This document shows, one piece after another, positions 25,442-28,392 of a stretch of DNA of 34,631 nucleotides. The first letter of the stretch is position 1, and each line of letters opens with the position of its first letter. The position numbers and the translations under genes were made by a program. The notes under the pieces are model-generated. The model did not search any database. It was given only the letters and a program-made list of their open reading frames with translations, and was not told the DNA's origin. The stretch lies in the IMG/VR virus record IMGVR_UViG_640753023_000006; one strand, written 5' to 3'. Source of the stretch: a virus (lineage: Duplodnaviria; Heunggongvirae; Uroviricota; Caudoviricetes).

Positions 25442-25805
25442 ATGAGTGACTATCATCACGGCGTGCAGGTGCTGGAGATTAACGACGGCACCCGCGTCAT
25501 TTCCACCGTATCCACCGCCATTGTTGGCATGGTCTGCACGGCCAGCGATGCGGATGCGGAAACCTTCCCCGTCAATAAACCGGTGCTGATCACCAATGTG
25601 CAGAGCGCGATTGCAAAGGCCGGTAAAAAAGGCACGCTGGCGGCATCGTTGCAGGCCATCGCTGACCAGTCAAAACCGGTCACCGTTGTCGTGCGCGTGG
25701 AAGACGGAACCGGCGACGACGAAGAAACGAAACTCGCGCAGACCGTTTCCAATATCATCGGCACCACTGACGAAAACGGTCAGTACACCGGACTGAAAGC
25801 CCTGC
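25442..25805 (+). pseudogene. FI: tail sheath gene FI, 5' fragment (disrupted by IS insertion)
   Basis: [43 protein letters not shown]... matches the P2 sheath N-terminus up to ...QYTGLKALL, then reads into IS sequence ([16 protein letters not shown], stop at 25858). Confidence 0.9.
25801..25805 (+). repeat. target-site duplication (left copy), CCTGC
   Basis: CCTGC immediately 5' of the IS left terminus; identical 5-mer at 28388-28392 immediately 3' of the right terminus. Removing the IS and one copy restores the FI reading frame (...[11 protein letters not shown]...). Confidence 0.75.
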
Positions 25806-25998
25806 TGCGTATTTTCATGAAAGGAGATCACTCAATAACTTCCATCGAGATCGGGTAATAACATTTGAACAGATCGCTGAATAACATCGATGGAGATCAC
25901 TTTTGACTCATTTTGTTATTCAGTGATCTCCATCAATGTTATTGGAACTTCACAGGTGTGTTGATCTGTATCTTTTGCCATTCCGGTAAAGGATACCT

Positions 25999-27541
25999 AT
26001 GCCAACAGTTCCAATTTCTATGAGAAAACTTAAAGAAATTCTTAGGCTTAAATACGGTGTTGGACTCAGCCATCGACAAATTGGTCGTAGTCTTGCAATC
26101 TCCCCTTCCGTTGTATCCAGATATGCTAATCGGGCGGCTCAACTTGGCATAAAGCAGTGGCCCTTACCTACAGGATGGGATGATACAAAACTAAAACATG
26201 CGTTCCTTCAGACCCAGGTTAAGATGAAGAAGCACTCTCTGCCTGACTGGGCTACAGTACACCGGGAACTGCGTAATAAATGCGTGACGCTGCAGCTACT
26301 CTGGGAAGAATACTGTGAGCGTAATCCAGGCGGTTTTTACAGCTATAACCATTACTGCCGGATGTACCGTGAATGGCTCAAAACCACTTCACCATCAATG
26401 CGTCAGGTACATAAAGCTGGCGAAAAACTTTTCGTTGATTACTGTGGACCTACCGTTGGCGTTACCGACCCTGAGACCGGAGAAATAAGAACTGCTCAGG
26501 TCATCGTAGCTGTTCTCGGGGCATCAAGTTACACATGGGCAGAGGCCACCTGGTCTCAGCAGCTTGAAGACTGGGTGATGAGTCATGTTCGCTGCTTCCA
26601 GTGGTTGGGTGGCGTTCCTGAACTTGTTGTTCCGGACAATCTGAAAAGCGCCACATCCAGGGCATGTAAGTATGATCCTGACGTTAACCCTACCTACCAG
26701 CAGATGCTTGAGCATTATAATGTCGCAGTTTTGCCTGCGCGGCCACGTAAACCGAAAGATAAAGCCAAAGCTGAAGTTGGCGTTCAGGTTGTTGAACGCT
26801 GGATCATGGCCCGAATCAGGCATGAGATCTTCTACAGCCTTGCATCGCTTAATCAGCGCATTCGGGAGTTGCTGGAAAGACTGAATAACAAAATAATGCA
26901 GAAGTTGGGTTATTCACGTGCAGAACTCTTCATCCAGCTTGATAAACCCGCACTGAAGCCTCTTCCTGAAGCCAGTTACAGTTACACCCTGGGTGAAGAA
27001 AGTCAGAGTTCATGCCGATTACCACGTGGAAATCGACAAACATTACTACTCGGTTCCATGTTCGCTGTTAGGCCAGCAACTGGAAGCATGGATCTCCGGA
27101 GAACTGGTAAGACTCTTCAATCAGGGGCAGGAGGTTGCTGTGCACCCGCGCAAGCGTACTTATGGCTACAGTACCCGCAACGAGCACATGCCTGAAGCTC
27201 ATCGACAGCATGCCACCTGGACGCCAGAGCGTCTTCTGGAATGGGCGGGGCACATAGGCAGTGAAACTCATAGTTATGTGCTTCATATACTGAACTCTCG
27301 TCCACATCCGGAACAAAGCTATCGCTTCTGCCTTGGACTCCTGAACCTTCATAAAAAATACAGTAAAGCCAGACTTAATGCAGCATGTGCAAGAGCTCTG
27401 AAAACAAAGGTATGGCGTCTGTCAGGTATTAAATCGATCCTGGAAAAAGGTCTGGATAAACAACCTGTTCAGGATCCAAAACCAGATCTGTTATCCACGA
27501 TGGAACACGAAAACGTACGCGGCAGTGAGTATTACCACTGA
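25999..27541 (+). pseudogene. istA: IS21-family transposase IstA, apparently frameshifted
   Basis: The N-terminal 331 codons (HTH MRKLKEILRLKYGVGLSHRQIGRSLAISPSVVSRY plus DDE-type core) are in one frame from 25999; the C-terminal about 180 aa (KKVRVHADYHVEIDKHYYSVP...) continue in the +1 frame from about 26990. The shift lies at or near the CCC run 26987-26989. Confidence 0.75.
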
Positions 27542-27552
27542 TACGGGATCCA

Positions 27553-28302
27553 ATGATGAATCATCTTTACGAACAACTGACCGCACTTAAACTCACCGGC
27601 TTCCGTGATGCGCTTAAAAAGCAACTTGCTCAGCCGGGCACATACCAGGAGCTGGGCTTCGAAGAACGCCTGTCATTACTGACAGCAGAAGAACTAACCT
27701 GCCGTGAAAACAGGAAGGCAGAGCGTCTGATCAAACATGCACGGTTCAGACTTAATGCTGAGTTATCAAAGCTGGATTATCGTAACAATAGAGGGCTGGA
27801 CAGGGCCCTCATCCGTTCACTCAGTCAGGGAAACTGGTTAACCCTGAAACAAAATATTTTACTGACCGGGGCCACCGGCAGCGGTAAAACGTTCCTGGCA
27901 TGTGCACTTGGTCATAATGCCTGCCGACAGGGATACAAGGTCTACTATTATCGCCTTAAAGCGCTGATGGAACAGTGCTATCAGGGGCATGCTGATGGAA
28001 GATACAGCAAACTTTTGACCAGGCTGAATAATAGCGATCTGCTGCTTCTGGATGACTGGGGGCTGGAACCTCTCTCATCAGAACAGCGTAGCGACCTGCT
28101 GGAAATAGTGGATCTGATGTACCAACGAGGCTCAATCATCGTAGTGAGCCAGTTGCCGGTGGAAAACTGGTACAAAATGATCGGAGACTCCACACATGCG
28201 GATGCCATCCTAGATCGACTGGTTCATGGCAGTATCAAGATCGAACTTAAAGGAGAATCAATGCGGAAAATACAATCTCCGTTGACCGAAGGAGATCAGT
28301 GA
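27553..28302 (+). CDS. istB: IS21-family helper ATPase IstB
   Basis: 249 aa with Walker A LLTGATGSGKTFLACALG and Walker B LLLLDDWGLEP; typical IstB/DnaC-like AAA+ helper downstream of istA. Confidence 0.9.
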   Translation: MMNHLYEQLTALKLTGFRDALKKQLAQPGTYQELGFEERLSLLTAEELTCRENRKAERLIKHARFRLNAELSKLDYRNNRGLDRALIRSLSQGNWLTLKQNILLTGATGSGKTFLACALGHNACRQGYKVYYYRLKALMEQCYQGHADGRYSKLLTRLNNSDLLLLDDWGLEPLSSEQRSDLLEIVDLMYQRGSIIVVSQLPVENWYKMIGDSTHADAILDRLVHGSIKIELKGESMRKIQSPLTEGDQ

Positions 28303-28387
28303 AGGTAATTTAAAAACGGTTCTGTGAAAGTGACACGAACCGATCTCCATCGATGTTACTCACCGATCTCCTTCACGGTAATACGCA

Positions 28388-28392
28388 CCTGC
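28388..28392 (+). repeat. target-site duplication (right copy), CCTGC
   Basis: See the left copy at 25801-25805. Confidence 0.75.

Follow-up and report, generated by a model that had tools for sequence, protein, structure and literature searches.

The prototype of the IS21 family of insertion sequences (ISs), IS21 of plasmid R68.45, encodes a DDE transposase, IstA, with an N-terminal helix-turn-helix, and an AAA+ ATPase, IstB; it has TG...CA ends and sub-terminal repeats and is reported to make 4-bp target duplications. In phage P2 the FI-FII-E-T-U-D transcription unit opens with FI, the tail sheath gene, which is among the essential late genes. One member of the IS21 family, ISEc12, has been described in tssM, a type VI secretion system (T6SS) gene of Escherichia coli ST131 clade C/H30, where it is flanked by the 5-bp duplication ACTGC (PMC10711316), and an IS with flanking direct repeats, ISBmu23, has been described in the P2-like Burkholderia phage KS5 (PMC3091744). 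Here we analyse a 34,631-nucleotide stretch of DNA, referred to below as the window (IMG/VR record IMGVR_UViG_640753023_000006), and conclude with high confidence that ISEc12 has transposed into codon 121/122 of gpFI in a P2-like (Peduovirus) prophage of E. coli APEC O1, almost certainly leaving the prophage defective.

The window insertion resembles the tssM case in the identity of the IS, in its 5-bp duplication, in depriving a contractile injection machine of a structural gene and in marking a lineage. However, the tssM target is a chromosomal T6SS gene and the insertion is fixed in a large clade, whereas the window target is a prophage gene and the allele is found in three datasets only. 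KS5 likewise has an IS resident in a P2-like genome, but ISBmu23 belongs to the IS4 family, is intergenic, disrupts no gene and leaves the phage viable, whereas in the window an essential gene is split. Relative to the IS21 prototype, ISEc12 has the same two-gene layout, TG...CA ends and multiple sub-terminal repeats, but differs in sequence and makes mostly 5-bp duplications. The event is real and already known in kind, because ISEc12, the family it belongs to, the length of the duplication it makes and its knock-outs of genes are all documented, as is the disruption of prophage genes by ISs. The interrupted locus is laid out as follows, in window coordinates:

25442..25805, + strand: gpFI 5′ fragment, codons 1-121 and the first base of codon 122
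25801..25805: left CCTGC duplication
25806..28387, + strand (FI orientation): ISEc12 (IS21 family), 2582 bp, equal to the 2581-bp reference copy plus one inserted G
25806..25821, + strand: left terminal inverted repeat, with the perfect core TGCGTATT at 25806-25813
25823..25931: left sub-terminal repeats with a GGAGATC core, at 25823 (+), 25892 (+) and 25925 (-); presumed IstA binding sites
25999..27541, + strand: istA transposase gene, 1543 nt against 1542, split into open reading frames (ORFs) 25999-27195 and 26993-27541
26991..26993, + strand: GGG run with the extra G (GG in the reference), the sole difference from reference ISEc12
27553..28302, + strand: istB, intact helper AAA+ ATPase gene; RefSeq copies begin at the second ATG, 27556
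28291..28371: right sub-terminal repeats with a GGAGATC core, at 28291 (+), 28342 (-) and 28365 (-)
28353 onwards: 288-residue chimeric ORF, from an in-frame ATG at 28353 inside the IS right end into the FI 3′ fragment
28372..28387, + strand: right terminal inverted repeat, ending ...AATACGCA
28388..28392: right CCTGC duplication
28393..29219, + strand: gpFI 3′ fragment, remainder of codon 122 to the stop; Phage_sheath_1 and Phage_sheath_1C
29232..34331, + strand: FII, E/E', T, U and D, intact; ORFs of 172, 91, 815, 159 and 387 residues

The sheath ORF starts at 25442, reads ...GLKALL and continues through 17 codons of IS sequence to a stop at 25858, giving 138 residues, and the FI frame resumes downstream of the IS at the codon beginning at 28389. 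The two copies of the CCTGC target duplication (25801-25805 and 28388-28392) are identical. An earlier note, written from the letters of the window, had described an IS in FI with this duplication, and all the elements it listed are found where it placed them; its in-frame return of FI also stands, with the position corrected by one base from 28388. In silico removal of the IS and one CCTGC restores the gene exactly, as a stop-free ORF of 1191 nt and 396 residues. This restored gene gives a single gap-free alignment with annotated 1191-nt 'phage tail sheath protein' genes, with 99.7% identity to that of E. coli DETEC-P881, and is 97.5% identical in nucleotide sequence to Peduovirus P2 gpFI (NC_070904.1 / OU784549.1) over 100% of its length. 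The comparison with intact relatives that the note had proposed thus extends to the uninterrupted FI genes (at least 80% of the gene in one place) of 1,608 of 5,426 complete E. coli genomes, a set in which FI copies overall number about 2,018 in 1,720 genomes.

The assignment to P2-like gpFI is borne out by domain architecture and position as well as by identity. The 5′ fragment matches Gp18_domIII_N in Pfam and the 3′ fragment matches Phage_sheath_1 and Phage_sheath_1C, the gene lies in the late operon downstream of the tail-fibre genes H and G, and the order FI-FII-E-E'-T-U-D is shared with P2 and with annotated homologous loci, the window differing from P2 in the interruption at codon 121/122. 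The window as a whole is a nearly complete P2-like prophage, with an integrase gene at position 1 and the ogr region at the far end, and all of the usual P2 late genes other than FI are present as full-length ORFs. A functional prophage would have its essential late genes intact; here gpFI is split by 2.6 kb.

The inserted DNA has every feature of the IS21 family that can be tested in a sequence, and by sequence identity it is ISEc12. Its termini have the family's 5'-TG ... CA-3' form, with TGCGTATT (25806-25813) matching the reverse complement of AATACGCA (28380-28387) at 8/8 positions and the extended inverted repeat at 13/16, and its 2582-bp length and 5-bp CCTGC duplication fall within the family ranges of about 2-2.8 kb and 4-8 bp. 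Gene content also agrees, with istA (a DDE transposase with an rve core, frameshifted in this copy) followed by istB. The NCBIfam models for the IS21 family transposase (NF033546, 311 bits against a cut-off of 160) and for the IstB helper (NF038214, 270 bits against a cut-off of 200) are both passed; in Pfam, rve falls on the first istA ORF, Mu-transpos_C_2 on the second, and IstB_IS21 matches istB with 227 bits. Against an uninterrupted plasmid copy (NZ_CP032263.1 21365-23945), the window copy shows one indel and no substitutions; it is identical at 2581/2581 reference positions, with the same termini, sub-terminal repeats, istA-istB order and spacing, and differs by the extra G. The name rests on RefSeq, which annotates copies identical but for the inserted base as 'IS21-like element ISEc12 family'. 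The family assignment made in the earlier note is therefore upheld, as are its clustered sub-terminal repeats, three with a GGAGATC core at each end. Its istA-istB order also holds; istB is intact, whereas istA is split by one extra G, a frameshift that the note had missed.

Fifteen further ISEc12 copies, each at another site, have the same end points as the window copy, so the IS boundaries are established independently of the FI locus. Fourteen of the fifteen have 5-8 bp duplications of their own, the copy in Esc30 lacking a perfect one; the duplications are mostly 5 bp, as in the window, and occasionally 6 or 8 bp. All seven GGAGATC sites of the 34.6-kb window lie inside the IS, against a chance expectation of 2.7 (0/100 shuffles reached 7), and six of them cluster near its ends, three per side, at IS positions 18-126 on the left and within the last 97 nt on the right. 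Each of these six repeats includes a GATC Dam site, and more GATC sites lie between them. Dam control is known for IS10, IS50 and IS903, and the GATC sites within the sub-terminal repeats suggest that Dam could possibly control IstA binding in ISEc12 too. In many genomes and plasmids (for example NZ_CP087290.1), an ISEc12 copy is interrupted after IS nucleotide 746 by an IS1203/IS3-family element with a 3-bp duplication; this looks like a widely spread nested composite.

The anatomy of the locus, with canonical TG...CA ends and a 5-bp duplication, is that of a simple insertion. IstA, with the IstB ATPase capturing the target DNA, would have cut the two strands 5 bp apart, and repair of the stagger would have created the CCTGC duplication. 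The sheath would now be represented by a 121-residue N-terminal stub carrying 17 IS-derived residues and by a 275-residue C-terminal piece without a start of its own. Late transcription from the promoter upstream of FI would have to cross the 2.6-kb IS before reaching FII, E, T, U and D, and polarity on FII-D is to be expected from an insertion of this size. Inactivation of FI would follow from the physical split of the ORF taken together with established P2 genetics, and the split and polarity combined should abolish tail assembly. It is almost certain that APEC O1 has a defective P2-like prophage.

The 138-residue left chimeric ORF, made of FI residues 1-121 and read-through into the IS, has an exact protein match in the E. 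coli APEC O1 chromosome (CP000468.1), in which a 12.4-kb stretch is 100% identical to window positions 19442-31858. The same ORF is present on a contig of GCA_902880315.1, which has two stretches 100% identical to the window, one of 2,465 nt in baseplate genes and one of 521 nt that runs across the FI 5′ end and the IS junction, and a different tail-fibre, invertase and hotspot module between the two. The 288-residue right-junction ORF is found in both of these records and in a Logan contig of SRR7524170, which has four single-nucleotide polymorphisms (SNPs) in FII and an IS without the extra G. At positions 1-454 of the SRR7524170 contig the left end of the IS abuts unrelated AT-rich non-coding DNA in place of the FI 5′ half, reflecting either a repeat-induced short-read join or recombination between ISEc12 copies. 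The exact junction (FI nt 360-364) is absent from the 5,426 complete E. coli genomes, a set evidently without APEC O1, and was not found among GTDB species representatives.

These records describe a single insertion event inherited by a small lineage, for which the FI insertion is a marker. The event predates some divergence, because the same junctions occur in prophages that differ by a tail-fibre module or by four SNPs, and at least one exchange of a prophage module came after it. The earlier description of the transposition as probably recent is thus borne out in part: the IS is identical to the common copy at 2581/2581 positions and the duplication is perfect, but the junctions are shared with two diverged datasets.

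A search with the left junction met ISEc12 elsewhere in the sheath genes of other strains. ISEc12 insertions in other FI genes were then surveyed in the 5,426 complete genomes with chimeric queries composed of 1 kb of an IS end and 1 kb of FII-E, pieces being joined only when the IS lay no more than 1.5 kb upstream of FII. The other anchors (U-D and N-M) served as controls, queried with both ends of the IS. For FI, positions and duplications were read exactly from the retrieved loci. Counted from orientation and span lengths, and so approximate and uncorrected for phylogeny (as are all event counts below), nine independent FI events are present in the genomes and the window brings the number to 10, five in each orientation (position in FI, duplication, IS orientation, source):

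FI 43-47, GACGG, +, GPEC464
FI 360-364, CCTGC, +, window
FI 418-425, CTGGACAC, +, E302
FI 430-434, GAGGT, -, Ecol_542
FI 657-661, CCAGG, -, 23556
FI 833-837, CCTGC, -, CMZE120
FI 901-905, ATGGC, +, KE54
FI 1060-1064, ACCCT, +, KOr024
FI 1101-1105, ACCGG, -, GPEC60-33-648
FI 1155-1159, CCTGG, -, NRZ95651

Beside the FI events, FII and E each have two further ISEc12 events and the 3′ end of G has one. The U-D anchor yields 26 records, which correspond to 17-21 events in T, U and D, and the N-M anchor 29, which correspond to 16-20 in P, O, N, M and L, for a total of approximately 50 independent events in the ~13.7 kb of P2 late genes surveyed. FI is not a hotspot within this region, its nine database events in 1.19 kb being similar to the numbers for T (~15 in 2.45 kb) and for the capsid/terminase region. 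A strong target motif was also rejected as an explanation, as 13 five-bp sites yield just a weak logo, nCnGn with a T after it. Local hopping out of a copy already in place was rejected too: the search for the same IS elsewhere, proposed in the earlier note, finds no second ISEc12 in the window, nor does the DETEC-P881 prophage have a second one. DETEC-P881 (NZ_CP116100.1), the closest relative with an intact FI, has its ISEc12 in the tail-fibre H region (locus 11678-17123), preceded by ~1.7 kb of unannotated sequence. Many records have their first base no more than a few kb away from their P2-like prophage; assemblers may be rotating genomes so that they start at a phage replication gene.

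The same design was applied to two other ISs on the T-U-D anchor, extended by ±3.3-3.9 kb so that FI, FII and E were also covered. The numbers of places given for IS1 and IS1203 are double-counted over both strands and include anchor matches:

IS1: about 120,000 places; 5 records near the anchor, 3 of them in host DNA beyond the prophage (at most 2 in P2)
IS1203: about 54,000 places; 1 record near the anchor
ISEc12: 5,546 places; 26 records at the U-D anchor

Outside prophages, the core loci lacZ, hyfBC and ebgA (GC-matched and non-essential, ~42 kb, 5,425 genomes) contain zero ISEc12 insertions, and the ~14 kb surveyed of the yersiniabactin High-Pathogenicity Island (HPI) contains one, at the int/ybtS edge. 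Among IMG/VR viral contigs, the ISEc12 left end occurs in 39. Of these, 20 are P2-like, and their insertions lie in A, Q, O, H, FII, T, U and D and a short way upstream of FI; most of the remaining 19 are lambdoid or P22-like fragments. By comparison, an IS1 end is present in at least 120 viral contigs with 0/120 P2-like (Fisher p = 5e-15 versus ISEc12), and an IS1203 end in at least 120, with 4/120 having at least 1 kb of P2 similarity (Fisher p = 3e-11), three of these four matching a mosaic tail-fibre segment only. These IMG/VR proportions are not normalised for the amounts of lambdoid and P2-like DNA.

ISEc12 is therefore over-represented in P2-like prophages relative to IS1, to IS1203 and to non-prophage DNA, without being exclusive to them, although the contrast with the core loci and the HPI is inflated by purifying selection. 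A GC preference does not lie behind the bias, because the 100-nt flanks of ISEc12 (GC 0.485) and IS1203 (0.471, p = 0.2) are alike, those of IS1 being 0.418, and because the GC-matched core loci have no insertion and the HPI only one. As regards IS1 and IS1203, the idea that P2 prophages are a sink for any IS also fails, both being near-absent from the same P2 region. The single IS1203 record (NZ_OY754371.1 24764-30814) has both the IS21-family element ISEc62 and IS1203 in the tape-measure gene T. In the searchable literature we found nothing relevant on a link between ISEc12 and P2 or between the IS21 family and prophages, and the association is the sole part of this analysis with some novelty.

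Two explanations for the association were weighed. It is quite plausible, if just short of probable, that it reflects neutral accumulation only: ISEc12 would now be very active, and P2-like prophages are common, conserved and dispensable, so that insertions in them persist and are easily detected. Of the 5,426 complete genomes, 1,908 contain ISEc12, at a median of 3 places per genome, and nearly all of its 5,546 places match at ≥99% identity by megablast, most of them above 99%, which suggests recent spread; its insertions fall across all of the surveyed P2 genes in both orientations, and it is found in other prophage types as well. However, the same reasoning should hold equally for IS1 and IS1203, which are abundant in other viral contigs and nearly absent from P2-like ones, and IS1203 has flanks of similar GC to those of ISEc12.

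A somewhat more tentative explanation is that ISEc12 has an intrinsic regional preference for P2-like prophage DNA, for which two candidate routes are the capture of targets by IstB/IstA and a P2-specific state of the DNA, for instance when phage DNA is incoming or replicating. On this view the FI insertion would be one product of a targeted disruption of prophages. The recurrence of events in FI, T-U-D and P-O-N-M-L points in this direction, as do the zero and one insertions in the core loci and the HPI, the near-absence of IS1 (at most two) and IS1203 (one) from the same P2 zone despite their ~10-20-fold more numerous places, as counted over both strands, the IMG/VR proportions (Fisher p ≤ 3e-11 for both comparisons) and the failure of local GC to account for the bias. 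On the other side, lambdoid or P22-like contigs make up about half of the viral contigs with ISEc12, the target logo is weak, the event counts are uncorrected span-length estimates, and the contrast would be exaggerated both by purifying selection on the HPI and core loci and by any avoidance of P2 by IS1 and IS1203; a preference would also have no known mechanism.

The ISEc62 copy in gene T of another P2-like prophage hints that the P2 association might extend to other members of the IS21 family. We put forward, with corresponding caution, that ISEc12, and possibly the IS21 family more widely, acts as a recurrent, element-specific inactivator of P2-like phages. If ISEc12 truly prefers P2-like prophages, this would be an example from nature in which a mobile element selectively disables another one, with a bearing on prophage crypticity, on target choice by the IstA and IstB proteins of the IS21 family and on the prediction of prophage viability in E. 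coli genomics. P2-like prophages that carry ISEc12 should be scored as defective.

In the window copy of ISEc12 itself, istA reads CCCTGGGTG where the reference reads CCCTGGTG. As a result IstA is native to residue 331 and continues for 67 out-of-frame residues (398 residues in all), and the C-terminal 182 istA codons persist as a separate ORF. Either APEC O1 acquired the extra G by a later mutation or its record contains an isolated error; whether gained after insertion or introduced by sequencing, the G would truncate IstA past its catalytic core. If the G is real, the window ISEc12 would be mobile only with transposase from another ISEc12. Programmed frameshifting was rejected, as reference copies encode istA as a single 513-residue ORF.

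That the G is a sequencing error in CP000468.1, and the window copy autonomous, is possible but somewhat doubtful. It is a one-base difference within a short G run, its 398-residue product occurs in CP000468.1 only among 153 billion indexed gene positions, and the SRR7524170 consensus, which shares the right junction, is without it. But this short-read consensus may derive from other ISEc12 copies, and the unrelated left flank of the contig means that the istA state of the window copy cannot be read from it. The window is otherwise free of signs of indels, with 8,312 bases aligned to the closest relative without a gap and all P2 ORFs at full length. Inserted copies do decay, because ISEc12 copies in the P2 prophages of KE54 (+A at IS position 670) and Esc30 (+T at 748) have other single-base istA frameshifts.

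A nanopore/Dcm artefact, considered because the site overlaps CCTGG and because of errors in the E302 copy, is unlikely in view of the absence of indels over the same 8.3 kb, although an ordinary base-calling error is conceivable; CP000468.1 is also the 2007 APEC O1 genome, a Sanger-era assembly, which counts against a nanopore origin. In E302 (NZ_AP022362.1, locus 5162-7733), the ISEc12 copy has 14 differences from the reference, mostly deletions at or beside CCWGG (Dcm) sites, and its frameshifted istA and istB annotations are probably artefacts of uncorrected nanopore basecalling errors.

Some points weigh against the reading of the window as an ISEc12 insertion that has left the prophage defective. 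The extra G could be an error in the deposited sequence, and SRR7524170, with an IS lacking the G and an unrelated left flank, cannot settle the istA of the window copy. Loss of tail production and polarity on FII-D would follow from what is known of P2 biology, and an outward promoter in the right end of the IS, or the ATG at 28353, could permit some expression of the C-terminal fragment and of the downstream genes. The remaining alternative, a misplacement of the repeated IS into a truly intact FI during assembly, as the earlier note had allowed for, is extremely improbable: ISEc12 is multi-copy in many genomes and the SRR7524170 contig does join it to an unrelated flank, but a misjoin would not yield a perfect 5-bp target duplication at canonical IS ends, both junctions were recovered independently in GCA_902880315.1 and the right one in SRR7524170, and the assembly is clean, because it shows no indels against the closest relative.

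Two genes of low GC content lie elsewhere in the prophage. At 6131-8347 (- strand), between gene A and the portal gene Q, the position of the old/tin cargo in P2, is a 738-residue ORF with 29.7% GC. Over its full length it matches PDC-S06, a candidate defence family in PADLOC (E = 1e-254), and it is more weakly similar to PrrC/LmuB-like ATPases. At 23465-25051 (- strand), in the Z/fun cargo hotspot between the tail-fibre gene G and FI, is a 528-residue ORF with 32.8% GC, which matches the NCBIfam Sll1717-family P-loop ATPase model with 209 bits and has no Pfam domain and no convincing PADLOC match; it is probably another anti-phage cargo gene. In GCA_902880315.1 the module that holds this ORF is replaced by a different tail-fibre set and an invertase.

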